A stretch of 64,000 nucleotides of DNA from an uncultured bacterium (GTDB taxonomy: Bacteria; Zixibacteria; MSB-5A5; JAABVY01; JAHJOQ01), in assembly GCA_965369655.1 (NCBI GenBank), contig CBDUQR010000002.1, positions 33,857 through 97,856 on the forward strand, in the 5' to 3' direction. Position 1 is the first letter of the stretch, and every line of letters starts with the position of its first letter. The position numbers were made by a program, and so were the translations under genes. The notes beneath the pieces were generated by a model. It saw only the letters and a list, made by a program, of their open reading frames with translations. It was not told where the DNA came from and made no database searches. Shown here piece by piece: positions 3,886 through 42,276 of this stretch.

Positions 3886-4722
3886 ATGAAGTGTTCGACC
3901 AGTATCATCCTGACAATCCTGCTGTCGATTTCGTTTATTGGCAGTACGGCATTGGCACAATTACCGGGGGACTGCAACGGATCTGGAGGAATCGACATCG
4001 ACGACGTGGTTTTAATCACATCCTACTTGTTGGAAGGGGACCAAGTTCCGACACCGGAATCAAGATCGAACTGTGACTGTGACAATAACCCTGGAATCTC
4101 GTTGGCTGATGCAGCGTTTATTATAGAAAGCATCTTCAATGGTCAGCAGTTGTTCCCGCCGACTGGCACAAAACTGACCAGGGGTTCCAGATCGACGATG
4201 TTCACAGGCGGACGGGCTACCGGGCTTCCGGGCATGGACAGGATAACTGTCCACATCGCAGTCGAGCCAAATGAAACCATCAACGGATTTCTGATACCGT
4301 TCTCTTACGCTTCACTGGCAGGCGACGCGGATATAAGCCTGACAAGCGTCGATTTTACGGGTTCCCTTCTTGAAGGATCGATAGTAGCGGTTATTGACGA
4401 TTCGAACAAGGTTCTCATGCTGTATGATGATCCACTTGCTCCGCCGAGTCTTACAGGGGGGACAATTGGACTTCTGGCCACTGTCTACTTCACCCAGAAT
4501 GCTCCCGGGAACGCTGTAGCGCTTCTCAAGACATCGACCGACAGGGTATCGCCGCTGCTCTTCCCGGAAGATTTTGTGAGTGATGATGGAGCACGGGTGC
4601 TTTATCCGGGCTTTGTCGAAAGGCCTATTGGCGATATTGACTGTTCATACTCCGTGGATATTGACGATGTTGTTGGAATGATAGGTTACATTTTTTCCGG
4701 CTTGCCGATCTGTTACTGGTAG
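3886..4722 (+). CDS. Secreted adaptor protein: N-terminal double dockerin-like repeat, cohesin-like beta-sandwich segment, C-terminal single dockerin-like repeat
   Basis: There is an AGGAGG RBS 7 nt upstream of ATG 3886 (the six-frame ORF start at 3847 lacks an RBS). A signal peptide is present (MKCSTSIILTILLSISFIGSTALA). Dockerin-like Ca-binding repeats are GDCNGSGGIDIDDVVLITSYLL, CDCDNNPGISLADAAFIIESIF and a third copy DIDCSYSVDIDDVVGMIGYIF. The central segment (RITVHIAVEPNETINGFLIPFSYASLAGDADISLTSVDFTGSLLEGSIVAVIDDSNKVLMLYDD) has the alternating hydrophobic pattern of cohesin modules. Confidence 0.6.
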   Translation: MKCSTSIILTILLSISFIGSTALAQLPGDCNGSGGIDIDDVVLITSYLLEGDQVPTPESRSNCDCDNNPGISLADAAFIIESIFNGQQLFPPTGTKLTRGSRSTMFTGGRATGLPGMDRITVHIAVEPNETINGFLIPFSYASLAGDADISLTSVDFTGSLLEGSIVAVIDDSNKVLMLYDDPLAPPSLTGGTIGLLATVYFTQNAPGNAVALLKTSTDRVSPLLFPEDFVSDDGARVLYPGFVERPIGDIDCSYSVDIDDVVGMIGYIFSGLPICYW

Positions 4723-7548: not shown

Positions 7549-10500
7549 TCACGCGGGTTGGAGCTTAACTCGATCCAATTCAGTTCTGATTGCCGCTCCG
7601 ATGGTTGCCTTGGTAAAGGGCTTCCTGACATAAGCACCAGCGCCGAGCGCCTGAGCCCAGAGCACCAGCCCCGACTCTGCGAACCCGGATACGATGATCG
7701 CTTTCTGGCCGGGGTGAATCCTGGAAATCAGCCTGTAGGTCTCGGCTCCGTCTATTCCGGGTGGCATGATCATATCAAGAATCAGGAGGTCCTGTGGATT
7801 ATCCTTCAGGAATTCAATTGCTTTCTCGCCACTCTCGACTGCGCTGACGGCGTAGCCAAGCTTCTTCAGGATTCTGGTGGAGACATCACGCTGGACCTCA
7901 TCATCGTCGATAATCAGTATCGTTTCGGTACCACCGACGATCTGCACAGATTCCTGCTCGTCAGCGGTCTTTCGGGTGATAGGGAAGTAGAGGTAGAACG
8001 ATGTCCCTCCTCCGACATTGCTGCTCAAGTCCAGGTATCCATTGTGGTCTTTCATGACTGCATCGACAACGCTCAAGCCAAGTCCTGAGCCCCGTTTCTT
8101 GTCAGCAGTCTTGGATGTAAAGAAAGGATCGAATATCTTCTGGATTATGTCGTCCGGGATGCCGCAGCCGGTATCGGATATGATTACCTTGACATACTCG
8201 CCCTTGGGGACGCGACCGTAGACTATGCTCACATCATCAACATAGTAGTTCTTGGTCTTCACGGTAATCGTTCCCACGCCATGCAAAGCATCCTGAGCAT
8301 TGCACAATAGATTCGAAATGCACCGATCAATCTGGGCAGCGCCTCCCATGACATTCATCAAATCGTCGCAGAGGTCAGTTTCGCAGCTTATCGTGCCGGA
8401 TCGGGTATCTATCACATTGACGGCGTGCGACACAATCCTGTTCAGGTTTATTACTTCCTGATTGTAATGGCCTCTTCTGCCCATGGCCAGGAGGTCCTGG
8501 TTGATATCACTTATCCTCTCCGCCGCGTTTTCGATATCATCAAGGTATATCAAGGCTGGATGGTTGTCCGGGAGTTCATCGCGAATCATATCCGGGTATG
8601 CCATTAACGGAGCCAGCAGATTGTTGAAATCATGGGCTACCTGCCCGGCAATCTTTCCCGCTGTCTCAAGACGTTCAGCGCGAGATTCGAGTGCCCGGAG
8701 GCGTCTGGTCTCGGTGATGTCGATAACATTACCAAACGCACCGATATATCTGCCGTTTTCGTCGAGGCGGGGAGAGACGGATACAAGCAGGATTCTCCGA
8801 TTGTTCTTTGCGGTGGTGATTTCGAGTTCATACTTGGAGGATTCCCCTCTCAGTCGGCATGCGGTTTGTTGCAGGATTATCTCCTTCTGGTCCGAATCAG
8901 CATAGTCCAGAAGAGACTTTCCGATCATCTTTTCAGGATCATCTTCCTCGAAGATACTCGCGCATGCCGGGTTGCAGAAGGTGACCTTTTCGTTCTCATC
9001 TACGACAACGATTCCCTCCAGCAGCGAAGAAAACAACTCGTCGTACTGGCTCTCCGACTTCTTCAGTGCATCCTCCACCTGTTTGCACTCGGTGATGTCG
9101 ATGCCCAACCCGATCAGATAAGTCCTCCCTTCGATCACCACTCTTCTACCGGTGAAGTAATACGGAGTTTTCATTCCCTCCTTGGTAACAAGAAGGTTCT
9201 CCATTGAACTCCAACCCTTATCGTAAACCTCCTGCATTCTTCTCGCGCATTTATCCCTCTCCGGTCCCTCTTCGAAGAAGTCCAAGAACGCCATCAGTTG
9301 GAGTTCTTCCTCTGAATATCCAGTAACTTGCGCCCAATTGTCGTTTCTTGACTGGAGAAGTCCGCTGTCTTTTTCAATGACATAAGAGAGCCCCGGCATA
9401 CTTTGGATAATGTTGGATGAATAATCCCGCTCGGCCTGCAGCAGGGTCTCCGCCCGCTTGCGCTCGGTGATGTCAAATACCCTCGCCTGAAGCACTTCCT
9501 TACCATTCAGCTCCATCTTATCAAGCAACACTTGGGCAGGAAAATCAGTACCGTCCAAACGTCGGTGTAAATGCTCAAACCGCGCGCTGCCTTCTTTTAT
9601 GGCAAGTGCAATATTGTTCTTGGCATAACTCATCGAATCAGTGCCGTCCGGCTGGGTCGGAGGCGAGAAATCGGCCGGATGCCTGTTACAAAATTCCTCT
9701 TTGGTGGCACAACCGAAAAGTCGCAGCGTCGCATCATTGCAATCAAAAAAACCTTTCTCATCGAGGAGCATTATCGAATCGCTAGACGAATCGTACAGGA
9801 CCTGGAGCTTGATCTTACTCTCGCGTATTGCCTCCTCCGCCCGTTTGCGCTCAGTGATGTCCAGCAGGATTCCGATGGAGCCGACAACCTGACCGGAATC
9901 GTCGCGAATAGGTACGGCATAGTCGCTGATCCACTTGACGTCCCCAGATGAGGTTTGGATGCGAACATCGGCTCTGTACTGCGCAGTTTCACCCCGCCGG
10001 AAGACTTCGCCGTAGGTGGCGTGATCTTCCGGACCGTCAGGATCCGTTACCACCTGTTCCATAATTATCTCGCTGTAAGCCTGTGGGGAGAACTCTTTCT
10101 GCGCAATACCAATCAGGTTTTCAATCCCGGCTCCGACGAAGACATACTTGCCGCTGGCCAGATCGAACTGATATGGAACTCCGCTCGCATTCTCGATGGT
10201 GCTTCGGTAAATCGATTCCGATTCACGCAGCGCCCTCTCCGCCTGTTTGCGCTCGGTGATGTCGCGAGCAATTCCGCACAGACCGATGATCTTGCCGGAG
10301 GTGTCGTACATCGGCACTTTGATGGTATGGAAGGTTATCTGAACCCCTTGAATAGGCTTGGTGTGTTCCTCCTCAACGGTCTCCCCACCAAGAACGCGAG
10401 AGTCCACTTCCCTGATGTGGGAGCCTGCTTCCGTTCCGAAGATATCTTCATCTGTCCGACCGATCAGCTCAAAGACCGAAAGTTCGAAAAGCCTCTCCAT

Positions 10501-11739
10501 GGTTGGGTTTACTTGTGTATATCTCAGAGAGTTGTCCTTGATAAAGACAGAGTCCTTAGCCGTCTCGAAGACTGCACGGAAACATTCCTCGCTCTCCCGC
10601 AGGGCCGCCGTTCGCTCATCTACAAGCGTCTCAACGAAACTGGCGCGGTTTCGCATCAGCATAAGTTGAGAAACTACGAGCGCAGTGAGCGCGAGGCCTC
10701 CGAGCAGGATGATCCATTGTATCCATAGGGAGTAAGCATCGAGATAGCCAGGCGATGGCGTACAGCGTATCTCCCAGGTCCGGTCAGCTATTTTGAAAGA
10801 AGTAACATATCTCAGGTTTGTACTATTATCAATTTTGAGCAGGGAATCACTCGTCTCCCAGTTGCGCAAGCGCGCCCAGTGCTGGCAAAGAAATTGCTCA
10901 CCGGGAGGTGAGGAGAGATCAATCACCTGAATATCTGTTCCTCTGGGGTCCTGTTTCCAAATTATACCCGTAAGGATATCGATAACTCGTACAGCAGAGA
11001 AGACAACGCCTTTGATAGCCGCACGGCGTTCTTCAATTGTCGAGATGGGCAAATCCTTTTCGTAAACAGGTCGATAAGCGATGACTGCCAGTTTGTTACT
11101 CTGCTCGCATGGTATTAGTATCGGACCAGTGATCGTAGACTGGTCTAAATCACGCGCTCGCTCAATCGCTTTGCGCTGGCTCGGTTTCGAGAACATATCC
11201 AAGCCCATCGCCCAATCGAGCTGCGGCAAGTGATACAGAACCGGATAGTACTCCTCGCGAGCAGGCGCGACTGCTGTGTCACCCAAATGAGAACCATCGT
11301 GGATATTGCAGTTAGCCAACCCTTCAACTTGCAGAGCTCGCTCAAAGTCGCTGCGGTTTGCGTGAGTTATGCGGGGCGCCCAGCCAAAAGCGTCGATTTC
11401 GGGGTGATTCACGAGTGCAGGTGCGGTAAACTGGATGAATTCATCACGGTCCACGAATTGCGAGCCGTCATAGAATCGCCCGAGAGCTTTGAGTTCGTCC
11501 AGGTGTCGATTAGCTTTATTCTCAAAGAGCAAACATCGTGTCTCGGCCAGTCGTTCGAAATCGAACTTGCGCAGCTCCCTCTCCCAGCTTCCCACCAGTA
11601 TACATGCTATTACGGACAACATTATTCCGATGAGCGCAGCAAACACTGCAGTATTCTGCCGCACGCGACCGGGTCGTGGATATTCCTCGTGGTTCTCAGC
11701 GTGAGGAAGGCTTCGGCCAAATGACTCTGTCTTACTCAC
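7549..11739 (-). CDS. Hybrid sensor histidine kinase: TM-CHASE sensor, ~5 PAS/PAC domains, HisKA, HATPase_c, C-terminal receiver
   Basis: The start is GTG with a GGGGGAG RBS. Domains by motif: a CHASE-like periplasmic domain between two TM helices, repeated PAS S-box blocks (ITERKRAEEAL-type linkers), an H-box (AHDFNNLLAPLMAYPD), an N/G-box (ISDTGCGIP…GSGLGLSVV) and a receiver (LIIDDDEVQRD…LDMIMP…KP). Confidence 0.85.
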   Translation of the reverse strand: MSKTESFGRSLPHAENHEEYPRPGRVRQNTAVFAALIGIMLSVIACILVGSWERELRKFDFERLAETRCLLFENKANRHLDELKALGRFYDGSQFVDRDEFIQFTAPALVNHPEIDAFGWAPRITHANRSDFERALQVEGLANCNIHDGSHLGDTAVAPAREEYYPVLYHLPQLDWAMGLDMFSKPSQRKAIERARDLDQSTITGPILIPCEQSNKLAVIAYRPVYEKDLPISTIEERRAAIKGVVFSAVRVIDILTGIIWKQDPRGTDIQVIDLSSPPGEQFLCQHWARLRNWETSDSLLKIDNSTNLRYVTSFKIADRTWEIRCTPSPGYLDAYSLWIQWIILLGGLALTALVVSQLMLMRNRASFVETLVDERTAALRESEECFRAVFETAKDSVFIKDNSLRYTQVNPTMERLFELSVFELIGRTDEDIFGTEAGSHIREVDSRVLGGETVEEEHTKPIQGVQITFHTIKVPMYDTSGKIIGLCGIARDITERKQAERALRESESIYRSTIENASGVPYQFDLASGKYVFVGAGIENLIGIAQKEFSPQAYSEIIMEQVVTDPDGPEDHATYGEVFRRGETAQYRADVRIQTSSGDVKWISDYAVPIRDDSGQVVGSIGILLDITERKRAEEAIRESKIKLQVLYDSSSDSIMLLDEKGFFDCNDATLRLFGCATKEEFCNRHPADFSPPTQPDGTDSMSYAKNNIALAIKEGSARFEHLHRRLDGTDFPAQVLLDKMELNGKEVLQARVFDITERKRAETLLQAERDYSSNIIQSMPGLSYVIEKDSGLLQSRNDNWAQVTGYSEEELQLMAFLDFFEEGPERDKCARRMQEVYDKGWSSMENLLVTKEGMKTPYYFTGRRVVIEGRTYLIGLGIDITECKQVEDALKKSESQYDELFSSLLEGIVVVDENEKVTFCNPACASIFEEDDPEKMIGKSLLDYADSDQKEIILQQTACRLRGESSKYELEITTAKNNRRILLVSVSPRLDENGRYIGAFGNVIDITETRRLRALESRAERLETAGKIAGQVAHDFNNLLAPLMAYPDMIRDELPDNHPALIYLDDIENAAERISDINQDLLAMGRRGHYNQEVINLNRIVSHAVNVIDTRSGTISCETDLCDDLMNVMGGAAQIDRCISNLLCNAQDALHGVGTITVKTKNYYVDDVSIVYGRVPKGEYVKVIISDTGCGIPDDIIQKIFDPFFTSKTADKKRGSGLGLSVVDAVMKDHNGYLDLSSNVGGGTSFYLYFPITRKTADEQESVQIVGGTETILIIDDDEVQRDVSTRILKKLGYAVSAVESGEKAIEFLKDNPQDLLILDMIMPPGIDGAETYRLISRIHPGQKAIIVSGFAESGLVLWAQALGAGAYVRKPFTKATIGAAIRTELDRVKLQPA

Positions 11740-15012: not shown

Positions 15013-15522
15013 GTATCTCGATATGTTCAAGCTAATCCTTTCATCAGTACAATGTTACGTCAATACTTGTATCGCACGATACCGCCGAATACTTGAATAG
15101 TCAATTAGAAAATCTTGACGATAATGTCGCGATGAGGGGTAGGTGGCTGCGACTACGTTTCTGCACTTAGTTTGAGCAGGTCACGTAACTCATTGTCCTG
15201 AAGTACGCTCATGGAAATAGTTGATCCAAGTTTTCTCTTGACACATTGCGTGTACCTGTTATATTGAGCATGTTGATTATGGTCCGCTCTCGGGGGATGG
15301 CGGATAGCGGCTGACTGACGGCCGCAGTTGTTCGTAATTACTCGCTTCGTCTGTACCCTTCGTCGAGTTGCATGTGCTTGAGGCTCGAAAGTTTTGTTCA
15401 AGAATACAATGTATGTAGGATTCCAAATTGCTGATAAGGAGGTGAAACAGCACAGGAGTTTATGTGGGGTTTGGTCTGAGGACCACACTTATTTTTTAAG
15501 ACTTGACAACAGGAGGATTTCA

Positions 15523-18500
15523 ATGAAATCTGCGAAATTCTTAGCAATCTTTGTGGTACTTGCGGTTCTCTTTGCCGTTCCTGCGTTCGCGCAGGATACT
15601 GGCGTTCTGGACACCGTCCGCTGGGTACCGGAGAGTACGACGTGGACGATCGATGCCGCAGGAGATTCGCTCTTCTCGATCGAGGTCTTTGGCTGGACGG
15701 ACCAGAGTATTACAGCTCTTTCACTCGGTTTCAAGATCCCGACGAGCTCCGGTGGCGGCACCGGTCATGATGATTCGCTGATAGTGGTTGATTCATTTAA
15801 TTTCACTATGTCGACGGGCTTTCCAGTACCATGGGCCTGGAGCGCGGTGGATTCAGCGCGCTTCGCAGATGATTTTCTACGGCACAGCTTGTACAATGGC
15901 ATCCTGCTCGGACGGATCATGCCGACCTTCCCTGCGAATACATCATCTAAGATTGGTGATCTGTTCATCAATATCCCTGATCCCACCTTGCTGCCATGTG
16001 AGTTCGACATAGCTATCGACTCGGTCTTTTTCCCGCCTGCTGGGGCTTTCAAGTTCTCTCCCTCTGGCGGCTCAGGCTACGCGCCTGAGTATGTAGGTGC
16101 GACAATTCATGTGGTGAACAATATCTGTATTCCTGATGAGGAACCGACAATTTACCTCAATCCGACAAGCTTTACATTTAACGCTGTCGAGAATGGTTCC
16201 AATCCGGTCGCGCAATCACTCAGTATCATTAATACAGGTTCTGGAACACTGAACTGGACAGCATCAGTTGATCAGACATGGTTGACTCTTGCCGCATACA
16301 GTGGTACAGGAGATGGTGCAGTAAATGTATTAGCTAATAGAGGTAGTTTGACTGCTGGCACTTACAATGGTACGGTGACAGTGTCTGATCCTGCGGCGAC
16401 GAATAATCCGCAGACAGCATCAGTGACATTTATCATTGCACCGGCTCCACCTGAGATCGTGCTCGATACGACGAGCTTTACGTTCGATGCAATTGAAGGT
16501 GGACCGAATCCGGATGATGATACTCTCTGGATCTCAAATGGCGGTGGTGGAACGCTCGACTGGTCGGTTGGCGATGATGCAACCTGGCTGACCACTACTC
16601 CCGTTGCGGGTACCGGAGACGGATACACCGTCCTGAGCGTGAATGTCTCAGGCCAGCAAGTCGGCACTCACGTTGCGACTGTTTTTGTCACCGATCCTGC
16701 CGCAAGCAATACTCCTCAGACGGTTGATGTTACACTGAATATTGTATGCGACCCATCTGAGATAGAGGTGACTCCGTTGAGTTTCACATTCGATGCTGTC
16801 GAAGGTGGACCGAATCCACCGGCACAGAATATGTTAATTGGAAGTAGTGGTTCTTGCGACGTCAATTGGACTGCAACGATTATAGCTGGATGGCTTTCAC
16901 TTTCTGAATATTCCGGAACTGCGGCGTCGAGTGTCGATATTTCTGTGGACATCTTGGGATTAGACGCCGGTACTTATGAAGATACTATCGTGATTTCACA
17001 CGATGGGATCAATGAAAGTCCCGTTAAAGTTCCAGTGACGCTGTATGTTAATTGCATTCCGGCAGAGTTGGAGACTTCACCATCGAGCTTCGCTTTTGAT
17101 GCTCAGGAGGATGGCGCAAATCCGACCCCGCAGATCCTGCACATTACAAATGGTGGGACTTGTGAACTATATTGGGGTGCAAGTAATTCTCAGCCCTGGC
17201 TCACGCTTTCTGATTACTCTGGAACTGGCCCCATTGATATCGATGTCATGGTTGATATAACCAGCATGACTGCTGGCGAGTACCACGATACGATTGTCGT
17301 ATTCGATGATGGCAGTCAAATTGACACCATACCTGTTGTGCTCACAATCGGTACAGAGCCGCTGTTGATGGTTGCGCCGAGCGAGCTCAATTTCACCGCT
17401 CCGGATGGCGGACCGAATCCTGCTTCTCAGGATGTTGATATTACATCGACCGACTCGCCTGATACGGAGCTTGAGTGGGTCGTTATTGAGCCTGGCAAGC
17501 CTATCGCCTGGTTGAGTTATGATCCGGCTTTGGGCACCACCCCTTCGGTTATGACTGTCAGTGTAAATATGGATGGGCTGTCTGCGGGTGTTTACAACGA
17601 CAGCATAATGCTTACGAAGAATGTTCCGGACAAGGACGATATCGGCGATACGGTGACTGTCTATGCTGAATTGACGGTTACTGGTGTTCCGGAAATCGAT
17701 CTGATTCCGAATTACTTCTTCTTCACCTGGGAAGAGGGTTCACCGATTGTTCCTGATGACCAGGATATGAATATCACCAACACAGGCTCCGGTACCCTGA
17801 ACTGGACTCTCTATGATACCGAGCTGATTGGCTGGCTTGATCCGTCGGCGTTTTCAGGTACCGCGCCATCGGTGGTGACACTTTCGATAGACACTGGTCC
17901 ATCACTTACAGCCGGCAACATATATGTTGACACGATTGTAGTTGAATGTGCTGATGCGATCAATCCGCTCGAGATTGCGATTGTCGAGCTTGAAGTGACC
18001 GAACCGCCGGTGCTTGACGACGACACGGTCTGGGTTGGAAATACAAGCGGACTTCCCGGCGAGCAGGTTATCGTTCCTGTGACTTTCGCCAACAGTGTAT
18101 ATCTGTCAGGCATCTCACTGCCGCTTATCTTTGACGATATGCTGGCGAAAATCGACAATGGTATTACCTGTGACTCGGTCTCGTTCATCGGGTCGAGGGT
18201 CGACTACATTGGCGCGAAGCCAGTCACGATTGACAATATCAACAAGACTGTACTGGCAGGTGTGATAGTTATTAGCGAGCCGCTAATTCCGGCAGGCAAC
18301 GGCCTGATGGCGAACCTGTATTTCTCGATCGCTCCGGGCGCCGCACCGGGAATCGTTCCGATAGACTCGACGTTTATCCTTCCTGCAAACGAACTGATGT
18401 TCGCTGACAGCCTTGGTGGCGCGATCTATCCGGAGTTCTTCTATGGAACAATTGAGATTCTCGAACCACCTTCGACGGCTTGCCTCGAGGTCAGCGATGG

Positions 18501-20562
18501 CTTCTTTGATTTCCAGGCGATTGTAAGCGGTCCGAATCCTTACGATCAGTACCTTGACATCATCAACTGTGGTGATGTGGAACTCAACTGGGATGCCTGG
18601 ACTCATGTAGGTACGTGGCTGAGCATCGATCCAACAACGGGAGTGGATGATGCAACGGTGACTCTCTCAGTCGATATTACAGGTCTTCCGGAAGGTGATT
18701 ACATCGATTCAATTACTGTTGATGCCGGTGATGCCGACAATTCACCGCAGTACGTACATGTTGACTTGCACGTTGGCCCGCCGTTGTCACAGTACATCTC
18801 AGGCGTCGTGCAGGATCCTGCCGACGTAGTGATTGACGGCGCGACTGTCGAGCTCTGGGATGTGTTCCCCACTGGTACCATCCTCGAGACGGCAACTTCA
18901 GCAGGCGATGGTTCGTTCATGTTCACTGGTTACACAGGTTATTATGTGGTCCGTGCGTACAAGAACGGTTACTATCAGAATTTCATGGATGTGACCGCGC
19001 CAGACGAGGCTGTTGTCATAGTCCTGACGCCGACTGGCACGCCAACTCCTACCAACGAGTGGGTGGATCTCTACTGTGACATGGCCATGTTCGAGGATTA
19101 TCCGATCCTCCCGGGTGATGTCGTAGAAGCTTACGATCCGGACGGTATTCTCTGCGGTCAGTATTTCGTCACCGAGATTGGCAAGTACGGCTTCATGCCG
19201 GTCTACCGCGACGACGACTTCACACCTGGTATCGACGAAGGTTGTGATCCGGGTGACGCGATCACGGTGATGCTCAACGGCTTCGATATGACTCCGTACC
19301 TCGGTGCTCCGTTATTCTGGACCCAGAATGGTGACAGGATCGAAGCATGCTTCGATGGTTACATCATCGACGAGATTTGCATGGATCTCTGCGAGGGTTG
19401 GAACCTGATCTCGTGGAATGTCGATACGGAAGTTGACGACATCGACGTCGTTATGCTTCCGATCATGGATTACATTGACGTCATGCTTGGATTCGAACAG
19501 GGTGCGTTGACGTTCGATCCCGATTATCCTGAGTTCTCTACGCTCGAGTTTGTCGACCACTACCACGGTTACTGGGTCAAGATGACTCAGGCTGCCGAGT
19601 TCTGCGTATCAGGTTTGCCGGTCGATCCATCGACGCCAATCTCTCTCGAAGAAGGCTGGAACCTTGCGTCCTATCTGCCTGATGGCGTTATGGCCACAGA
19701 GGAAGCTCTGGTTTCGATTCTTGACGTGCTGATCGTCGCTCTCGGATTCAACTGCGAAGAGGGCGGTATGGTGTACGATCCTGAGAATCCTGGCATGTCT
19801 GACCTCGAATTCCTTGGCCCAGGATTTGGATACTGGTACAAGGTCACTCAGGATGTCATGCTGACCTATCCGAGCGATGTTCCGTGGGCTGCGATGTTCT
19901 CCGGTGAGCCGGACAAGACATCGGCCAAGCTTGCCGTGCTGAAAGATGTTACTCCTACGACTCAGTGGGTGGATATCTTCGGCGGCAATGTCACGATTGA
20001 CGGTCGTGCGCTTGCAACCGGTTCGATCGTCGAGGCTGTCGATGAACACGGCGCCGTTTGTGGCGCGTTCGAGATCAAAGCCTCCGGCAGACTCGGTTTC
20101 ATGGCGGTCTATGGCGATGACATGACAACTTCAGATACGTACGAAGGTCCGACTACGGGCGGTACGTTTTACCTCGTGGTGGACGGCATCGCGACAGAGG
20201 AGACATTCGTGTGGACCGGGCACGGCGAGCGTGTCGAGATCGGCGCCCTGAGCTCTCTCGGTGGCGGCGGCGTAACGCTTCCGGATGCTTACGTACTGGA
20301 GCAGAACTATCCGAACCCGTTCAATCCGAAGACCAGCATCTCGTTCAGCGTCGGTAACGATGCTTATGTGAATCTGGTCGTATACAACCTTCTTGGCGAA
20401 GTTGTGAATGTTCTGGTCGATGAATTCAGAGCCGCCGGCGACTACACGGTCGACTGGAACGGTGACGACCTGAGCGGACGCACAGTCTCTTCCGGCGTCT
20501 ACTTCTACAAGCTGACGTCCGGCGACTATACTGAGACCAGGAAGATGATGTTGATGAAGTAA
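15523..20562 (+). CDS. Giant T9SS-sorted scaffoldin-like surface protein (1679 aa). It contains 7 BACON-type Ig repeats, a cohesin-like module, a CarboxypepD_reg-like domain, two novel ~77-aa W/CG repeats, two EGWNL repeats and a C-terminal T9SS sorting domain.
   Basis: There is an AGGAGGA RBS before ATG 15523 and a signal peptide (MKSAKFLAIFVVLAVLFAVPAFA). Seven repeats fit the BACON pattern SFTF(D/N)A.EGGPNP…LNW…WL…SGTGDG…AGTY…VTV…NPQT. The cohesin-like segment is VWVGNTSGLPGEQVIVPVTFANSVYLSGISLPLIFDD…NLYFSIAPGAAPGIVPID. The C-terminal YPNPFNPKTSISF…GVYFYKL…RKMMLMK is a T9SS C-terminal domain. Confidence 0.8.
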   Translation: MKSAKFLAIFVVLAVLFAVPAFAQDTGVLDTVRWVPESTTWTIDAAGDSLFSIEVFGWTDQSITALSLGFKIPTSSGGGTGHDDSLIVVDSFNFTMSTGFPVPWAWSAVDSARFADDFLRHSLYNGILLGRIMPTFPANTSSKIGDLFINIPDPTLLPCEFDIAIDSVFFPPAGAFKFSPSGGSGYAPEYVGATIHVVNNICIPDEEPTIYLNPTSFTFNAVENGSNPVAQSLSIINTGSGTLNWTASVDQTWLTLAAYSGTGDGAVNVLANRGSLTAGTYNGTVTVSDPAATNNPQTASVTFIIAPAPPEIVLDTTSFTFDAIEGGPNPDDDTLWISNGGGGTLDWSVGDDATWLTTTPVAGTGDGYTVLSVNVSGQQVGTHVATVFVTDPAASNTPQTVDVTLNIVCDPSEIEVTPLSFTFDAVEGGPNPPAQNMLIGSSGSCDVNWTATIIAGWLSLSEYSGTAASSVDISVDILGLDAGTYEDTIVISHDGINESPVKVPVTLYVNCIPAELETSPSSFAFDAQEDGANPTPQILHITNGGTCELYWGASNSQPWLTLSDYSGTGPIDIDVMVDITSMTAGEYHDTIVVFDDGSQIDTIPVVLTIGTEPLLMVAPSELNFTAPDGGPNPASQDVDITSTDSPDTELEWVVIEPGKPIAWLSYDPALGTTPSVMTVSVNMDGLSAGVYNDSIMLTKNVPDKDDIGDTVTVYAELTVTGVPEIDLIPNYFFFTWEEGSPIVPDDQDMNITNTGSGTLNWTLYDTELIGWLDPSAFSGTAPSVVTLSIDTGPSLTAGNIYVDTIVVECADAINPLEIAIVELEVTEPPVLDDDTVWVGNTSGLPGEQVIVPVTFANSVYLSGISLPLIFDDMLAKIDNGITCDSVSFIGSRVDYIGAKPVTIDNINKTVLAGVIVISEPLIPAGNGLMANLYFSIAPGAAPGIVPIDSTFILPANELMFADSLGGAIYPEFFYGTIEILEPPSTACLEVSDGFFDFQAIVSGPNPYDQYLDIINCGDVELNWDAWTHVGTWLSIDPTTGVDDATVTLSVDITGLPEGDYIDSITVDAGDADNSPQYVHVDLHVGPPLSQYISGVVQDPADVVIDGATVELWDVFPTGTILETATSAGDGSFMFTGYTGYYVVRAYKNGYYQNFMDVTAPDEAVVIVLTPTGTPTPTNEWVDLYCDMAMFEDYPILPGDVVEAYDPDGILCGQYFVTEIGKYGFMPVYRDDDFTPGIDEGCDPGDAITVMLNGFDMTPYLGAPLFWTQNGDRIEACFDGYIIDEICMDLCEGWNLISWNVDTEVDDIDVVMLPIMDYIDVMLGFEQGALTFDPDYPEFSTLEFVDHYHGYWVKMTQAAEFCVSGLPVDPSTPISLEEGWNLASYLPDGVMATEEALVSILDVLIVALGFNCEEGGMVYDPENPGMSDLEFLGPGFGYWYKVTQDVMLTYPSDVPWAAMFSGEPDKTSAKLAVLKDVTPTTQWVDIFGGNVTIDGRALATGSIVEAVDEHGAVCGAFEIKASGRLGFMAVYGDDMTTSDTYEGPTTGGTFYLVVDGIATEETFVWTGHGERVEIGALSSLGGGGVTLPDAYVLEQNYPNPFNPKTSISFSVGNDAYVNLVVYNLLGEVVNVLVDEFRAAGDYTVDWNGDDLSGRTVSSGVYFYKLTSGDYTETRKMMLMK

Positions 20563-20574: not shown

Positions 20575-20608
20575 GGCAGGGCGGTTAGAACCCGCCCTGC
20601 CCTTTCTC
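20575..20608 (+). terminator. Rho-independent terminator
   Basis: A perfect 10-bp stem (GGCAGGGCGG / CCGCCCTGCC) has a 6-nt loop and is followed by CTTTCTC. Confidence 0.6.
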
Positions 20609-20619: not shown

Positions 20620-21669
20620 TTGAAGAAATTCAAACGTAATATCGCGAGGCTGTTACCTCTCTTGTTGTTGTCAGTCCTTATGGCGTCATCCGCAAGCGCT
20701 CAGGTAATTCCGACAGACCAGTGGGTGCATTTCTGGAGCCCGAGTTCGACCTTAAATGGACAGCCGCTGCCGATTGGAGCGATTGTTGACACATATGATC
20801 CGGACGGCGTACATTGCGGTCGGTTCATCGTCCATACTACCGGTCAGTACGGTTACCTTTCAGTTTACCATGATGATAGTTACACGCCGGGTGTCGATGA
20901 GGGTGCGCTTTCCGGCGATACGATCACAATCATGGTAAATGGCGTACTGGCAGATGTTCTTGGTCCTGACGATCCCGAGTGGACGTTCAACTTCGCATTT
21001 CTGAACATCGACCTGGGCGTTCTGATCAATCTTGCGCTCGAGTTGACTACTCCACTTGACGACGTGGGAGCGCCAAACGGTTTCGTCGATTACACGTACA
21101 AGGTGAAGAATACCGGTGAGGGGATCGATTTCTTCAACCTCGAAGCTGTTTCATCCGGTGGATGGACAGTCGAAATTCTCGGCGGCGACGCCACAGGCTA
21201 CCTGAATCCGGGGGAGGAGACAGATGTAGTCGTGCGAGTCCATGTACCAGGCACTGCCCAGGATGGCGATACCGATGATCTGACTCTGACCGCCAGTTCA
21301 GCTATGGATGCCACCGTATCTGAGAGCGGTACAGTGACGACCTCGGTGATCGAAAGCGCCGCAGGGGATCCCTATGATCCTCTCATTCCGGGCGTGTTTC
21401 ATCTTCGCCAGAACTTCCCGAATCCGTTTAATCCTGTGACGACAATCGAGTTCTCGATCGAAAAGGCGATGGACGTCGAGTTGATCGTTTACAACGTTAT
21501 CGGGCAGGAGGTCAAAACGCTGGCCAACCGTCATCTGGAGATAGGCATGCATCAGTTCGAATGGGATGCCACAGATGAGAGTGGACAGAAAGTTGCAAGC
21601 GGAATCTACTTCTATCGACTTATCACTGATGAGTACGCGAGAACGCGCAAAATGATGCTGATGAAATAA
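20620..21669 (+). CDS. T9SS C-terminal-domain secreted protein (349 aa) sharing the W/CG repeat with the scaffoldin
   Basis: The start is TTG with a GGAGGTG RBS. It has a signal peptide and one copy of the W/CG domain (DQWVHFWSP…PDGVHCGRFIV…YGYLSVYHDD…TIMVNGV). Its T9SS C-terminal domain (FPNPFNPVTTIEFS…GIYFYRL…RKMMLMK) is near-identical in pattern to that of the scaffoldin. Confidence 0.75.
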   Translation: MKKFKRNIARLLPLLLLSVLMASSASAQVIPTDQWVHFWSPSSTLNGQPLPIGAIVDTYDPDGVHCGRFIVHTTGQYGYLSVYHDDSYTPGVDEGALSGDTITIMVNGVLADVLGPDDPEWTFNFAFLNIDLGVLINLALELTTPLDDVGAPNGFVDYTYKVKNTGEGIDFFNLEAVSSGGWTVEILGGDATGYLNPGEETDVVVRVHVPGTAQDGDTDDLTLTASSAMDATVSESGTVTTSVIESAAGDPYDPLIPGVFHLRQNFPNPFNPVTTIEFSIEKAMDVELIVYNVIGQEVKTLANRHLEIGMHQFEWDATDESGQKVASGIYFYRLITDEYARTRKMMLMK

Positions 21670-21692: not shown

Positions 21693-21727
21693 CGGAGCCC
21701 TTCCCATGAGGAGGGGCTCATTTTTTT
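21693..21727 (+). terminator. Probable Rho-independent terminator
   Basis: An imperfect GC-rich hairpin (GGAGCCCTTCCC..GGAGGGGCTC) is followed by ATTTTTTTC. Confidence 0.45.
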
Positions 21728-23000: not shown

Positions 23001-23852
23001 ATGTTGAAGAAGCTGGCTATTCTATTGACGATCAGTCTGCTGATCCTCGGATGTTCGCCATCGGAAGAGACCGACGCCGAAACGACGCAGTCGGATTCTT
23101 ACGTCACTATTGCGTACACGATGAAGGTGTCCGGAATACCGATGATGGCTGAGATGACGTTCAATCAGAAGTATCTTACCGATGGCGCGATTGGCAGAGT
23201 TGAAATGGAATCGATCATTCCTGTCGGAGAGGATACGAAGACCTCGAAGTTCAGCACTATCATCGACGTCGATAACCGCGTCGTGCATTATGTCAATGAC
23301 GTCTCGAAAACGTTTGCGACCGTACCTTTCCCCGACTCGCTCAGCACGCCGCCGATGACCTCACCGGAAATGACGATCAGCGTCGAGCCTAACGGGCAGG
23401 TGGATACGATTGCGGGTATCGAGTGCGACGGTATCGATCTTGCGCTGGAAATCTCATTCGTCGCTCAGGATCAACCTGTGAAATCGACCATGAGCGGGAC
23501 GCTCTGGACCAGCGAGGATTTCCCCGGCTACGCCTCATATCAGGCGTTCCAGGAGAAGACCAGGAATGCGCTTCCGTCCGGCCAGATGCAGAGCGGGGGT
23601 TTCCTTGATTTCCTGACGAGATTCGGGATGAGCCGTGAGAACCTCGATTCGTTGTATGCTGCCATGAAAGGTTTCCCGTTCTCCGGTGATCTCGTAATCA
23701 CATTGAACAAAGGTCTGCCGAATAGCTTTGACCTGAACACTAGGCTCGAAATGATCGAGACAAACACTGATGCGATCGACCGAGCGCTGTTTTCGGTACC
23801 TGAAGAATACACCGAGACAGAAGTCATGCAGATCATGATGCCGTCGAAGTAG
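23001..23852 (+). CDS. Hypothetical lipoprotein
   Basis: It has a signal peptide with a lipobox (LLILGCS) and no recognisable catalytic motifs. Confidence 0.6.
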   Translation: MLKKLAILLTISLLILGCSPSEETDAETTQSDSYVTIAYTMKVSGIPMMAEMTFNQKYLTDGAIGRVEMESIIPVGEDTKTSKFSTIIDVDNRVVHYVNDVSKTFATVPFPDSLSTPPMTSPEMTISVEPNGQVDTIAGIECDGIDLALEISFVAQDQPVKSTMSGTLWTSEDFPGYASYQAFQEKTRNALPSGQMQSGGFLDFLTRFGMSRENLDSLYAAMKGFPFSGDLVITLNKGLPNSFDLNTRLEMIETNTDAIDRALFSVPEEYTETEVMQIMMPSK

Positions 23853-24661: not shown

Positions 24662-26017
24662 ATGATTAGACTAACTCGCAGAAATACGATTGTAATCATT
24701 ATTGTTTGCGCACTGGCTGCCGCTTGTGTGACGTCCTACCTGTTGTTTCTCGTTCCAGCCGATGATCTGGAAATGTCTCTCTCGGAACGGCTCGGTATCG
24801 CTGAGCCATCTGGCGAGTTTCGTCTCTGGGTCAACAGTTTTCCCGAGGGCGCGGAGGTTCTGCTTGATGATTCGCTTGTAGGACAAACTCCTCTCTCGCT
24901 GGTGGAGTTGCCGGCTGGTCAGTACCTGGTATCTCTTCGCAGCGAGCGGTTCCATGCGGTCGATACTATCATTTTGGTTTCTGATGAAGGCAGCGTTGAA
25001 CTGCCGCTGTTCGTACTCCAGAGGACAATTCGTCTCGAAAGCATACCATCCGGAGCAGTCGTGATTCTGAATGGCGAGGAGCTGTCCGGTGTGACACCAA
25101 TTGAAATTCGCCAGCCATCGAGCGACACGTTCCTTGTTTCATACGCTCACCCTGATCTTGGAGGAATCTGGCTTTCCGCTGTAGACCCGTCCGACGGATC
25201 GGCAATCGTTCCGCTGGGTCAGCGATGGGAGATCGACAACGGTGACCCATTGGTCCTTCACGGTTTGTTCAGCAAAATGTGCACTCTTCGGACGGTTCCG
25301 ACTTTTGCTTATATTTATCTGCAAGAGACCGACAGCCTCCTCGGCCTCACCGGTCAGCCAATTGAATTACCCTGTGGCATGAGGGAATATGTGCTCACGA
25401 AAGATGATTTCAACACCCTGACAATCGAACTCGATGCATGTGCCGAGGGCGCATGGGACAACCTGTTTGAATTGACACACGTTCTCCGTGTAAGCGCGGT
25501 CTCGTTCGAAGCGCCCGACGGCGACGACATTGGTGCGATGATCACCACGCTTCAAAGTGGATCGATTGTGGAGTCCGTCAATGAGCGGACGCCTGCAGAT
25601 ATTGAACTCAGGGGGGTTGAATACCGACTCTGTCTTCAGGCTGATGGCTTCGTTGATACCTGTGTGGTGATATCTGCAAGCCAGACGTTAATCAAGGTGA
25701 AAATGAAGAGACGGGGACTTGCTCCAGATCTGTCGGGAGCGGTTCCGGTCTCTGGCGCCGAGCGGGTAGAGTTCCTGGTGCGCGACAAGAGGAGCAAGTC
25801 CGGGCTGCCGGGTGTCGATGTCATTGCGCGATTCAAGAGCGAGAACCGGACTGTACTGTTAGGAGTAACCGACAGCGCCGGTTACCTGGCTGTCGATCTT
25901 ACACCCGGTAAGTATGAATTCAGACTCGTCAAGGAAGGATACAAGCAGGTCAGGAAGAAACATACCGTGAAGCGGGGCCAGACCAAATGGTTTGACATTT
26001 TGCTCAAGACGAACTGA
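24662..26017 (+). CDS. PEGA-domain membrane-anchored protein with C-terminal carboxypeptidase-regulatory-like fold
   Basis: It has an N-terminal TM helix and at least two PEGA motifs (FPEGAEVLLDDSLVGQTPL; IPSGAVVILNGEELSGVTPIEI). The C-terminal segment is (GVDVIARFKSENRTVLLGVTDSAGYLAVDLTPGKYEFRLVKEGY). Confidence 0.7.
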   Translation: MIRLTRRNTIVIIIVCALAAACVTSYLLFLVPADDLEMSLSERLGIAEPSGEFRLWVNSFPEGAEVLLDDSLVGQTPLSLVELPAGQYLVSLRSERFHAVDTIILVSDEGSVELPLFVLQRTIRLESIPSGAVVILNGEELSGVTPIEIRQPSSDTFLVSYAHPDLGGIWLSAVDPSDGSAIVPLGQRWEIDNGDPLVLHGLFSKMCTLRTVPTFAYIYLQETDSLLGLTGQPIELPCGMREYVLTKDDFNTLTIELDACAEGAWDNLFELTHVLRVSAVSFEAPDGDDIGAMITTLQSGSIVESVNERTPADIELRGVEYRLCLQADGFVDTCVVISASQTLIKVKMKRRGLAPDLSGAVPVSGAERVEFLVRDKRSKSGLPGVDVIARFKSENRTVLLGVTDSAGYLAVDLTPGKYEFRLVKEGYKQVRKKHTVKRGQTKWFDILLKTN

Positions 26018-26109
26018 GTCGTCCCCAATTGTTGCACACAGTCGGCAGCGTGCGGCGTGCGTCGATTTTGTTGTTGCTATATCTGCACGATCTGTTTTTT
26101 AGGTTACTT

Positions 26110-27168
26110 ATGAAAGTTGAGATCATTGGAAAGACCGACGTGGGATTGCAGCGTGATGCGAATGAGGATTCGTTCGGCATTCTCGAATCCAAACGCCTGG
26201 CTGTCGTGTGTGACGGTATGGGCGGTCATGCAGCTGGCGAAGTTGCTTCGCGCTGCGCGGTAGATACATTACTGAGTCTGTACAAAGGCGCCGAGATTCC
26301 GGATGCTGCAGGCGACGCATTCGAATTGTCACCCGAACTGAGCGAGGAGGCTCGATTCCTCGTTTCTTCCGTACGAATCGCGAATACACGCACATATCTG
26401 ATGTCGGAGGCGGACCCGCGACTTGCGGGCATGGGTACGACTATTGTCGCAGCCGTATTCAGCGGCGGATCGATCACGATTAGTCATGTCGGAGATTCGC
26501 GAGCCTACCGGATCAGGAAAAACAGTCTGAGCCAACTGACCGTGGATCACTCGCTCGTGAGTGAGTTGCTGGCGTCAGGACGGATCACTCAGGAGAAAGC
26601 AGGGGAGTATCCTAATCGCAACATTATCACGCGAGCGCTCGGTGTCAGGGAACGAGTCAGGGTTGACGTACGCGAGCAATGTGTCGAGGCTGGTGATCTC
26701 TTTCTTCTATGCAGTGACGGCCTGACGGGAATGGTGAAAGAGACGGAGATTCTTCGCATAATCACTGACAGCGATGGCGACCTCGATACGATGGCCGACA
26801 GGCTGATTGCCGCCGCCAATGAGGGAGGCGGTGGGGATAACATTACGTGCGTTCTCGCTCGTGTGACCAGTGTCACGGAAAAGGACGTGCATGATGTGGA
26901 AATGACAACTCTGACGGTGCCGGAGGAGAGGGACTCGGAGCTTGCCGCTCAACGTATTGTGAGTGATGCGCTGGAGTCGATGCCCGAGGGCATGGCTGGG
27001 AATTCGTCCGGCGCAGATGACGCCGATTCTGCTCCTCCGAAGTCTCGCAGGTTCCCCGGCCTTCTGATAATCTGTCTGGTGGCCGCAGTGGCGCTGATTC
27101 TGCTGGCGTTTGTGGCCGATGTTACCGGTACGCGTGAGGCATTGTCCCGAATGTTCGGTCTCAATTGA
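26110..27168 (+). CDS. PP2C-family Ser/Thr protein phosphatase with C-terminal TM anchor
   Basis: PP2C motifs are present (EIIGKTDVGLQRDANEDSF…AVVCDGMGGHAAGEVAS…LLCSDGLTGMV…GGGDNITCVL). A hydrophobic helix (FPGLLIICLVAAVALILLAFV) lies near the C-terminus. Confidence 0.8.
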   Translation: MKVEIIGKTDVGLQRDANEDSFGILESKRLAVVCDGMGGHAAGEVASRCAVDTLLSLYKGAEIPDAAGDAFELSPELSEEARFLVSSVRIANTRTYLMSEADPRLAGMGTTIVAAVFSGGSITISHVGDSRAYRIRKNSLSQLTVDHSLVSELLASGRITQEKAGEYPNRNIITRALGVRERVRVDVREQCVEAGDLFLLCSDGLTGMVKETEILRIITDSDGDLDTMADRLIAAANEGGGGDNITCVLARVTSVTEKDVHDVEMTTLTVPEERDSELAAQRIVSDALESMPEGMAGNSSGADDADSAPPKSRRFPGLLIICLVAAVALILLAFVADVTGTREALSRMFGLN

Positions 27169-27331: not shown

Positions 27332-30300
27332 TTAGCAGCAGGCAGCCGGATCGGGCGCTGGTCCTCCACCGAAGATGTAGTTGATCAGATACACTACATC
27401 ATCGATGTCGATACCGCCCAAACCGTTGGCATCACCGCAACAGATATGATCCACAGGCTCTGGTCCGCCACCGAAGATATAGTTGATCAGATACACCACA
27501 TCATCGATGTCGACACCACCAGAACCGTTAGCATCGCCCGAAACGCAATCGGACACAGGCTCACAACCCGGACAGTCAATGTTAGCACAGATCCAGGTCT
27601 TACCCTTATCGATGAGATTTTGCAGATCTGAAAGGCCTGTAAGGCTCGAGGCCTTCACCTTGCAGTATACGACGCACTCCTCTGCTGCAAGTGTGAGATC
27701 CTGAGCGATGACGTACACCGAATTGAGGTCCTCTACTGAATCCGAGGCGAGAAATCCGGTATGTGTAGCCAACAGATTGCCTATTTCGGCAGGTACATAA
27801 CCGGAGTTATCATACACCCAGGTGTCGTTTTCGAGGACGATGGCACCAACGATATCACCACAGAAGGATGCGCCGCCATAGTAGTCCTCGTAAGGCGAAC
27901 TGCCGGCGGGACCATACTGGTAGACCATCTGTCTGTCTTCATCGACTCCGGACTGGTTGTCACTGCCGTCTTCGCCGTCCGGTATATCCCAGTCGATACC
28001 TTCACCGAGATGGATGGTGATAGCGGCATCGGTGTTGTTGCAGACTTCAACGCGCTCGATCAGTACACAGACATCCGGGTGCTTCGGCACGTACCACTCA
28101 ATCACACCGGTGATGGCTGAGTCTGGAGTAGCCCACTCGCCGTGAGCGTAGTCGTAGTTGACATCATCCACAAGTATCAGCGAGTCTAAAGCGACGAAGC
28201 TGACTTTGCTGTTGGAGCCGTCGAACATCGAGAAGAATGTCTGAGAGACGTCGTCAGCATATGTCACGATGATACCCTCGTCGTACATTGGCGCGAACTC
28301 TTCGAGGAACCAGAACATATTGCCGAGATCACTGCGTTGAGCAACACCGGCTCTCGGGACGTTCCAGACGCCGATAGACCAGCAAGCGGTCGACAGAATT
28401 TCGTATTCCGGCGGGAAGTACTTACAGGCGACCAGAAGGTTGACAGGAATGTCGACTTGATCGGAACCTTCAGTACTGGTCAGACTGACACTCACGTTAC
28501 CGATTTCGGCGGTTTCGTTGGCCACCGGGCCAACGTCCACGGTGATAGTGGCTACGGTATTGATACCAGCCGTCACCGTACCGGTACCGCCGGTGATGCT
28601 CATCCAGCTTTCAGTTTCGCTTACAATGTAGCCGATCTCGACGTTACCGGTGTTGACGATAACGACATCAAACGACGTCGTAGTCGGCATCGTGCAGTCG
28701 GTACCGCTCGTGGGAGAGATTATCACAGACTGGTCCTCAGGAGCGACCGAATAGCTGAAAATGGCTTCCGGAGTGAAGCATGGGTACGTGGCGTAGAGAA
28801 CCTCGTTCTCGGTTTCTTCTCCCTCATCGTGAACGAACGAGCCAGCGTCATGGTCGCTGACGTAGAAGAGGTGCAGTACACCAGACGAGTATTTGGCCAT
28901 CGATCCGAAGTTCTCGTTGTGGCATGCACCGGCCACACAGCCGTCGGAGTATGTATTGGTCAGGTTGACATAAGTGCCGAGCTTGACCGGGACGCCGCTG
29001 CCAGCGGTCGTCAGTGTGTCGAATTCGTCCAGGGTGCCGTCGGGACCCCATGTGATGCCGCCATCGCTCGATGCAGTCAGGCAGAATTCGCCGTTTGCAT
29101 AACCATTTGCGGAGCAATCACCGTTGTTGTCACCACGGGGCCAGGTTCCAAAACGAGTAAACGAAACGTACATGTTGCCGTCGCATTCGGAGATGTTGAT
29201 TCTGGAAATGGCGCCGAGACCACCACCGATACCGCCGCTGCAGAATCCAGTCGGGGAGGTAGCGTCGAGAACGCGCGATATGACGTTGCTGGACTGATCC
29301 CAGTGCCACATATTGCCGCGGAACAGCGGCTGGCAAGGATCATCTTCTCTGAAATCAGGAGTCAGCCAAATGATGTGAAGGTCCCCGTCAGAGTCGTAGA
29401 CGGCTGATATTTCCGATTGAGCCTTGTGCACAAAATTGATGGGGTCAAGTGTTCCTCCCTCGGTGTAGTCAGTGATGTTGACTTCCGAACCCCAGGTGGC
29501 GCCGCCGTCAGTCGATTCCATGTAGACTATGTCGTGTTGTACCCACTGGAAGTTATTGAGATCGCCGGCAGGGTTGCCATCGCCATCACAACTGTTTCTC
29601 GGGTCACCCTGCTCGTAGAAAGGTTTGCACCAGATGAGGGCCACGTCGTCCGATGTCGGAGCGGGATCAGAGCGAACAGTAGCATTGACCGTATGGGAAG
29701 CATCGATGTAGAGGCCGAGCGTGTCGGTAGAGGTACCGGGGCACTCAGCGAGATCACCGTCAATATACCGATAGTAGATGATCGATTGTATCGACTCGTC
29801 AGGAAGAGCCACCGGCGGCGACTCGGTTGAGACTATGTGCAGTATCTCTTCGCCGGTTGTCAGTTTCTGGAACTCACCTACCGGCCAAATGTATGCATCA
29901 CCTTCATTTGTGCCGGACATTTCTCCCTGGCAGTTCGGTGGACCCGGCGCCCAGCGACTCACGTCAGGAAGGGCTTGAGGAAAGTAGCCGGACGGTGGCA
30001 TCATATCTATGCCCGACCTTGTGGAATAGAGCGCCGAACCCGGGCCTGCATGCCAGAATCCGACCGCAACACCGGCGTCGGTGACGTCAATAGTGGTATA
30101 TCCGCCATTGTTGGCAGATGCTGAATTCCCGGTGTGGCCCCACACCCATGCGCTGGGAGTAGTGATTTTGCGAGAGTTGTAATATATTCTCCGAAAACCG
30201 CTATGATCAGTCGGATGGCCTCTCATCCAGAGAAAGTGAACATATTCCAAACCGCTACCCTGGAAGTTCGGCGTGTAAGCGATCTGCCTCCCCATCGTGC

Positions 30301-42267: not shown

Positions 42268-42276
42268 TAGATAAGT

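Follow-up and report, generated by a model that had tools for sequence, protein, structure and literature searches.

To our knowledge, the assembly of proteins through cohesins and dockerins is understood almost entirely from the cellulosomes of Gram-positive bacteria, whose scaffoldins are attached to the wall by S-layer homology (SLH) modules or by sortase. Here we analyze a gene at positions 15523–20562 (+ strand) of a window of 64,000 nt from an uncultured Zixibacteria bacterium (assembly GCA_965369655.1, contig CBDUQR010000002.1, positions 33,857–97,856 of the forward strand); its product combines predicted cohesin-family modules and immunoglobulin (Ig)-like BACON_2 repeats with a type IX secretion system (T9SS) C-terminal sorting domain (CTD). 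The functionally closest described proteins are the Gram-positive anchoring scaffoldins SdbA, OlpB and Orf2p from Clostridium thermocellum, ScaC from Acetivibrio cellulolyticus and ScaE from Ruminococcus flavefaciens. The window protein differs from these in that it would be anchored in a diderm by the T9SS CTD, whereas they rely on SLH or sortase; in that it contains BACON_2 spacers and, before the anchor, a cassette of ca. 420 aa without known homolog; and in that neither a carbohydrate-binding module (CBM) of family 3 nor a recognised carbohydrate-active enzyme payload was found and one of its two cohesins is strongly divergent.

A scaffoldin-like protein with a T9SS CTD was inferred, from a metagenome-assembled genome (MAG) only, in the Cloacimonadota bacterium 'Ca. 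Stygibacter'; it is 3755 aa long and contains numerous cohesins in tandem as well as CBM2/CBM3 domains, and the dockerins are borne by identified hydrolases and peptidases (PMC8542988). Both this and the window protein are large, non-catalytic proteins from the Fibrobacteres-Chlorobi-Bacteroidetes (FCB) group, inferred from MAGs only, that associate cohesins with a T9SS CTD and whose genomes also encode secreted proteins with dockerins; by description, the window protein is set apart by its having two cohesins, BACON spacers, a cassette of the form W/CG-EGW-EGW-W/CG and a conserved partner gene. Cohesins located outside cellulosomes, such as those from Archaeoglobus fulgidus (2xdh) and from the toxin complex of Clostridium perfringens (2vo8, 2w1n, 2o4e), occur in enzymes or in small proteins, and we know of none reported with a T9SS anchor or with the architecture of the window protein; non-cellulosomal cohesin and dockerin modules were reportedly treated by Peer et al. 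in 2009. Tandem BACON-type Ig repeats are also found in multi-BACON T9SS proteins of Bacteroidota and in BACON proteins of crAss-like phages (PF19190, PF13004), and the annotation of many homologs reads 'BACON domain-containing' or else 'T9SS type A sorting domain-containing'. However, instead of cohesins plus the cassette, most multi-BACON proteins have domains of catalytic or lectin type (PQQ dehydrogenase, LamG, malectin, peptidase M23). In the searchable library that we consulted there was no paper tying Zixibacteria to dockerin, nor anything relevant for Ignavibacteria, Zixibacteria or Calditrichota/Calditrichaeota in combination with cohesin, and we found no description of the large family of proteins that contain the cassette.

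We consider it fairly likely that the window protein is a non-catalytic scaffoldin analog anchored to the outer membrane, with two cohesins on a stalk of Ig-like repeats that would hold dockerin-tagged secreted proteins. The internal cohesin (aa 826–990) corresponds to a flattened beta-sandwich (jelly-roll) of nine strands that can be superposed on cohesins of solved structure. When the profile of its family was compared with the Protein Data Bank (PDB), seven of the eight matches were cohesins, the best one (6kg8_A, E 7e-4) spanning nearly the whole domain, and the Pfam Cohesin model matches 12 of 26 modules homologous to aa 826–990 at E<0.1 (best, 1e-5). The second module lies at the N-terminus, in 180 aa that the first-pass annotation, otherwise sound in its list of modules, had left unrecognised. 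Alone, this module did not retrieve any match in Pfam even at E 10, and the same was true of the isolated W/CG and EGW modules. Nevertheless, its family of orthologs (A3) aligned by hhalign to the cohesin family (A4) over 149 columns (97.8%, E 7.6e-13), and therefore the protein carries two cohesin-family modules, the distal one being divergent and interrupted by insertions. The motifs DT[VL]R, SLxF and IDSxFFPPAGxFxF are common to the N-terminal module and the internal cohesin.

Cohesins and dockerins, the two halves of such a system, are both encoded within at most 15 kb of gene 15523–20562, with three dockerin-bearing open reading frames (ORFs) in the window. The Dockerin_1 model of Pfam scored 26.7 bits (cut-off, 22.9) with ORFs 3886–4722 and 30915–34172, and 19.8 bits, under the same cut-off, with ORF 27332–30541. 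The two paralogs of ca. 1070 aa end in a type I dockerin of textbook form, with perfectly duplicated segments in whose sequence the calcium-binding F-hand motifs can be seen twice; they are arranged in tandem, and both of them contain a signal peptide, BNR/Asp-box motifs (SxDGGxTW) and a BACON-like stretch. The smaller ORF, listed from a TTG at 3847 and with an ATG preceded by an AAGGAGG ribosome binding site (RBS) at 3886, contains besides its dockerin a cohesin module (E 1.1e-9 against the hidden Markov model (HMM) of the cohesin family built here), a layout that makes it a candidate adaptor scaffoldin. Thus, as in scaffoldins, two cohesin-family modules are present in a non-catalytic secreted protein and its genome encodes dockerin-bearing partners, whereas we did not find a CBM (e.g., CBM3) or dockerins on carbohydrate-active enzymes in the window protein or in the dockerin ORFs of the window. 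The term scaffoldin-like, used in the first-pass annotation, is strengthened by the three dockerin ORFs, but neither a CBM nor a recognised enzyme domain was found.

From established T9SS biology, the protein would be exported by the Sec pathway and then translocated by the T9SS, with removal of the CTD and covalent fixation of the resulting C-terminus to the outer-membrane surface. It has the two hallmarks of T9SS type A cargo, a CTD at the extreme C-terminus and an N-terminal Sec signal peptide, the latter read from the sequence, and the presence of Tol-Pal genes in the window indicates an outer membrane. The cassette would then be the membrane-proximal base, with the N-terminus pointing outward; the BACON repeats would act as a spacer of a few tens of nm, as estimated from the number of domains, leaving the cohesins at mid-height and at the tip of the stalk. 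By analogy with cellulosomes, these cohesins could capture the two BNR/Asp-box paralogs and the dockerin-cohesin adaptor, either directly or by way of the adaptor. Our working guess is that the partner, a protein with W/CG, Ig-like and CTD modules whose gene is most likely co-transcribed with the window gene, joins the cassette at the cell surface.

Several observations weigh against a scaffoldin analog. The internal cohesin scored only 16.6 bits (E 0.0095) with Pfam PF00963, below the cut-off of 24.1, and the N-terminal module, which has insertions, may no longer bind dockerins; calcium-dependent binding of dockerins by the window cohesins is itself a prediction. The dockerin proteins show weak BNR/Asp-box and BACON-like matches and no glycoside hydrolase, polysaccharide lyase, carbohydrate esterase or other recognised catalytic domain; they also have no T9SS CTD that would account for their passage across the outer membrane. 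The two dockerin paralogs are missing from L001, the otherwise syntenic locus of another Zixibacteria MAG. No family of the T9SS machinery (SprA, PorV, PorU, PorK-N) appeared among the subset of window ORFs that were scanned, and the spacer role of BACON domains comes from published work on other proteins. A rival explanation, which we deem unlikely, is that the protein is an adhesin of fibrillar type or binds glycans at the surface; its BACON repeats and cohesin-like modules would then attach directly to polysaccharide, mineral or other cells, and the neighboring dockerin genes would be unrelated to it.

The domain organization, from the N- to the C-terminus, consists of a signal peptide, a divergent cohesin, six BACON_2 repeats, a cohesin, a BACON_2 repeat, a transthyretin-like sandwich, the W/CG-EGW-EGW-W/CG cassette and the T9SS type A CTD (Table 1), and internally repeated modules make up ca. 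83% of the protein. Except for the N-terminal module, this is the order given by the first-pass annotation, whose counts of seven BACON (six plus one), two W/CG and two EGWNL repeats were borne out by Pfam, self-BLAST and alignment. Pfam BACON_2 passes its curated cut-off (122.5 bits vs. 25) in five stretches; self-BLAST of 100-aa pieces together with alignment delimit seven copies (E 1e-8 to 1e-28), with the two copies beyond the Pfam stretches detected at E 1e-8 to 1e-13 and the seventh by the similarity of aa 995–1076 to aa 217–297 (E 1e-13). W/CG copies A and B are 34% identical (BLAST E 7e-15; hhalign 99.9%) and the EGWNL modules are 42% identical to each other (E 1e-13; hhalign 99.8%). 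For the sandwich, assigned to a carboxypeptidase-regulatory-like fold, the window copy remains below the PF13620 cut-off of 32.3 bits (aa 1092–1158; E 4.4e-6, 27.4 bits), and the domain at the homologous position in relatives P0135, P0150 and P0123 passes it (45, 40.5 and 37.8 bits). The T9SS CTD, also recognised in the first-pass annotation, is above the cut-offs of both TIGR04183 (aa 1596–1676 of 1679; E 2e-9, 37.3 bits vs. 23) and Por_Secre_tail (PF18962; 33.2 bits vs. 27). No CBM or recognised catalytic domain was found in the protein with Pfam and NCBIfam, and a phmmer search of the PDB with the whole protein returned zero matches. The hhalign comparisons did not clearly identify the W/CG module as a paralog of CarboxypepD_reg (22%, E 9e-4), and related the EGW module to neither cohesin nor BACON (below 1%).

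Table 1. Position of the features of gene 15523–20562, its signals, its partner gene and the dockerin-bearing ORFs within the 64,000 nt window.
Feature	Position (nt)	Strand	Evidence
Candidate adaptor of ca. 278 aa with signal peptide, dockerin of type I, cohesin-like module and a single F-hand at the C-terminus	3886–4722	+	Pfam; cohesin-family HMM
Candidate sigma-70-like promoter, TTGACA-N16-(TG)TTATATT	15238–15265	+	Scan; comparison with L001
RBS AGGAGG, 5 nt before the ATG	15512–15517	+	Sequence; kept in L001
Sec signal peptide, aa 1–23 (MKSAKFLAIFVVLAVLFAVPAFA/Q)	15523–15591	+	Read from sequence; same N-terminus in P0002 and P0007
N-terminal divergent cohesin-family module with insertions, aa 25–205	15595–16137	+	hhalign of ortholog families
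Six BACON_2 (PF19190) Ig-like repeats, aa ca. 206–822	16138–17988	+	Pfam E 7e-36; self-BLAST; alignment
Type-I-like cohesin module, aa 826–990	17998–18492	+	
Seventh BACON_2 repeat, aa ca. 990–1082	18490–18768	+	Self-BLAST; alignment
CarboxypepD_reg-like (transthyretin-like) beta-sandwich, aa ca. 1085–1170	18775–19032	+	Pfam PF13620
W/CG copy A, first cassette module, aa 1175–1281	19045–19365	+	
Two EGWNL...GYW(V/Y)K alpha/beta modules, aa 1282–1369 and 1370–1453	19366–19881	+	Self-BLAST; hhalign
W/CG copy B, aa 1477–1579	19951–20259	+	BLAST; hhalign
T9SS type A C-terminal sorting domain, aa 1596–1679, and stop codon	20308–20562	+	TIGR04183; Por_Secre_tail
Intercistronic hairpin, 10-bp perfect stem, 7-nt loop, no U-tract	20575–20601	+	Folding; L001
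Partner gene; product of 349 aa with signal peptide, a single W/CG module of copy-A type, Ig-like domain and T9SS CTD	20620–21669	+	
Canonical intrinsic terminator (10-bp stem, T7) after the partner gene	21695–21719	+	Terminator scan
Secreted protein of 1068 aa with BNR/Asp-box motifs, BACON-like region and a double dockerin at the C-terminus	27332–30541	-	
Paralog, ca. 1080 aa, C-terminal double dockerin (GDANGSGGVDIDDVVYLINYIFGGGP twice)	30915–34172	-	Pfam Dockerin_1

The cassette, i.e., the W/CG-EGW-EGW-W/CG block of 421 aa directly N-terminal to the CTD, had no match in Pfam, NCBIfam or the PDB sequences, and only chance matches (E ca. 0.5) were obtained with a profile search of the PDB. 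A word-indexed search for homologs retrieved just 22 proteins with the cassette, and it was exhaustive HMMER searching of 1.84 billion cluster representatives that made the family visible, with 4646 cassette proteins at E<=1e-3 and 394 at E<=1e-30. Among the full-coverage matches examined, the cassette nearly always ends 84–105 residues from the C-terminus, directly followed by the CTD, and the few exceptions look like truncated proteins; conversely, the regions ahead of the cassette span from 0 to ca. 3000 aa. We found 177 relatives in the species genomes of GTDB, the best 80 of which belong to Zixibacteria/GN15, Ignavibacteria(les), Calditrichota and FCB bacteria without further classification; several paralogs were often present per genome. 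These best 80 genome loci plus that of ortholog P0002, totaling 81 loci and 82 cassette proteins, are the basis for the counts below.

At least one cohesin is present in 68 of the 82 proteins. The end of the last cohesin lies at most 200 aa before the cassette in 66 of these, in most cases leaving a fixed gap of either 81–92 aa (one transthyretin-like sandwich) or 180–184 aa (BACON plus sandwich), the latter being that of the subfamily of the window protein. The metagenome representatives, a less biased sample, showed the same arrangement of cohesins in 57 of 126 informative proteins, and the remaining ones carried HYR, PKD or IgGFc-binding-type passengers. The cassette proteins form a conserved family with a fixed core, comprising cohesin, optional BACON, CarboxypepD_reg, cassette and CTD; the window protein is modular, as its first description as a mosaic implied, but it is one member of this family. 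Dockerin ORFs occur at most 6 kb from the cassette gene in 9 of the 81 loci, with 0 matches in the reversed-sequence control. In L026, L029 and L047, a dockerin ORF of ca. 500–700 aa ends ca. 220–260 nt upstream of the cassette gene and in the same strand, which suggests operon-level linkage of dockerin and cohesin in some MAGs labelled as Ignavibacteria. Additionally, in two distant homologs of Zixibacteria type (P0013 and P0015) the W/CG-EGW cassette is replaced by extra cohesins and a single dockerin-like segment (DVNxSGxVxxxDVxxIRRYLA), with cohesins and dockerin thus in one protein, ahead of the CTD.

Association of the cassette with a second gene is also recurrent. At most 122 nt downstream of the cassette gene, 54 of the 81 loci have, in the same strand, an ORF of 340–480 aa opening with a single W/CG module; for six of the 28 cassette proteins without this partner, the sequence available downstream is too short to judge. 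The partner with W/CG, Ig-like and CTD modules was found across Zixibacteria, Ignavibacteria and Calditrichota, and the W/CG module of the window copy matches the cassette profile on its positions 3–98 (hmmsearch E 1e-29). An AlphaFold 2 (AF2) model of the four cassette modules reached a mean predicted local distance difference test (pLDDT) of 85.3 and a predicted TM-score (pTM) of 0.71; since this pTM is high for a bead-on-string arrangement, the modules probably pack as one unit. We regard the cassette as a probably new domain assembly. We tentatively extend the reading of the window protein as a scaffoldin analog to the family, in that the conserved core and the partner gene might form a surface docking platform not described before in Zixibacteria, Ignavibacteria and Calditrichota, with which the FCB superphylum would present proteins tagged with a dockerin on the outer membrane; the cassette would be the new domain assembly forming its membrane-proximal base.

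The same features lend themselves to another explanation, by which the protein is a T9SS-dependent subunit of a surface layer, with the cassette and the W/CG partner forming a lattice or coat and the cohesins serving for self-assembly and not to recruit a payload. The cassette is far more conserved than the passengers and abuts the CTD, the W/CG partner is conserved along with it, the pTM suggests a compact four-module unit, and in Tannerella the S-layer is formed by TfsA and TfsB, which are T9SS cargo. We nevertheless regard a surface-layer subunit as quite improbable: there is no evidence of oligomerization, the existence of several paralogs per genome with different passengers fits better with an anchoring base than with a single lattice protein, and neither the fixed position of the cohesin nor the dockerins would be explained.

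The gene is real and intact. It is an uninterrupted ORF of 1679 aa without internal stops, as had been annotated, and a 100% identical protein (P0001) is encoded in a shorter public contig of 18.7 kb from ENA, which is probably a separate assembly. The database gene call for P0001 begins at an ATG located 38 codons upstream of 15523; however, orthologs P0002 and P0007 have their N-terminus at the same MK...AxA/QDTG signal peptide as the window protein, so we consider 15523 as the real start and the call for P0001 as too early. Collinear orthologs show 51–55% identity over 88% of the length of the protein, and synteny with the orthologous locus L001, from Zixibacteria MAG GCA_043823925.1, extends from PdxS/PdxT through the PP2C gene and includes both the window gene and its partner. 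The BACON repeats share 29–49% pairwise protein identity, and at the DNA level we did not find any tandem array (Tandem Repeats Finder), nor does any direct repeat exceed 48 nt or 81% identity; hence, the repeats are old duplications, in agreement with the first-pass annotation, and an assembly artefact is very unlikely. That annotation had named a frameshift or a mis-assembly within the repeats as what would weaken its interpretation, which is at odds with the unbroken frame, the identical P0001 and the collinear orthologs. That the gene is an artefact of assembly or is undergoing decay, as might be suspected for a repeat-rich gene in metagenome-type sequence, therefore has a negligible probability given the divergence of the repeats in protein, the lack of long nucleotide repeats, the uninterrupted frame, the identical protein in another public contig and the full-length, collinear and syntenic orthologs.

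The gene is preceded by an intergenic region of 492 nt with 44% GC (52% in the window), at the other side of which there is a divergent gene for a phosphotransferase system (PTS) EIIA protein. It was initially taken as a leader of 490 nt, but is instead the intergenic region shared by both genes, and the 5' untranslated region (UTR) predicted from the promoter would be ca. 255 nt. The best site in a scan of the region, TTGACA-N16-TGTTATATT, has 11 of 12 matches and an extended -10; this is the TTGACA-N16-TATATT promoter first proposed, although about 9 nt away from the position then assigned to it (15247–15275). Both hexamers are kept in L001 whereas the spacer has diverged, which supports a promoter function. 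The strong RBS that had been annotated is also present and conserved. At a distance of 55% protein identity, the 5' UTR (15266–15522, compared with 9467–10003 in L001) retains the conserved blocks CGGGGGA.GGCG, TCTGTACCCT.CGTCGAGTTG, TGAGGCTCGAA and GAAGGAGGTGAAA and may be a regulatory leader; no match to the 5' region was found in Rfam. The AAGGAGGTGA block was considered as the mark of a conserved upstream ORF and discarded, because the 5-codon ORF of the window has no counterpart in L001.

The hairpin downstream of the gene is stable (dG -27.8 kcal/mol, z -3.6) and is kept in L001, where it has a compensatory change from G-C to A-U; its tail reads CUUUCU in the window but in L001 is GUGUCA, neither of them containing a U-tract, and the terminator scan does not call it. 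The partner gene starts 18 nt after the hairpin, with its GGAGGTGA RBS in between. The absence of a U-tract, the conservation of the two-gene unit and the canonical terminator after the second gene led us to reject a monocistronic gene with its own terminator, and with it the perfect terminator hairpin of the first-pass annotation, which is a real hairpin but not the terminator. Most likely, the window gene and its partner constitute one operon, in which the hairpin would most likely be an intercistronic element affecting stability or attenuation.

Other genes in the window include one for a hybrid histidine kinase of 1395 aa (7549–11739, - strand) with CHASE, several PAS, HisKA, HATPase and receiver domains; only a PAS protein of 280 aa is found near the corresponding position in L001. 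Downstream of the operon there are genes for a DUF4412 protein (23001–23852, + strand) and a PEGA and CarboxypepD_reg protein (24662–26017, + strand) that, together with a PP2C phosphatase gene (26029–27168), keep their synteny with L001; their products may be further components of the envelope or surface. A Tol-Pal-type cluster (38476–43029, + strand) codes for a protein of the MotA/TolQ/ExbB family, TolB and a TPR/YfiO-like protein, and a cluster for polysaccharide export and sugar nucleotides is located at 56–63 kb.

The first-pass annotation of the architecture of this single gene was essentially right, and we find the broader family to which it belongs of greater interest. Parts of the cohesin-dockerin system are here combined with the anchor for type IX secretion of a diderm, and this stereotyped architecture is found again in proteins, hundreds to thousands in number, of uncultured lineages of sediment and subsurface. 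As to how dockerin proteins without a T9SS signal get to the surface, in a bolder version of the docking platform the cohesin adjacent to the cassette would load the dockerin proteins lacking a CTD in the periplasm and carry them through the T9SS translocon. If the cohesins do bind the neighboring dockerins, they would provide a new orthogonal cohesin-dockerin pair, together with a T9SS display scaffold, for engineering of Gram-negative bacteria; likewise, the pre-CTD cassette and the partner gene would gain a function, and multi-protein complexes at the cell surface would be general in Zixibacteria and Ignavibacteria.

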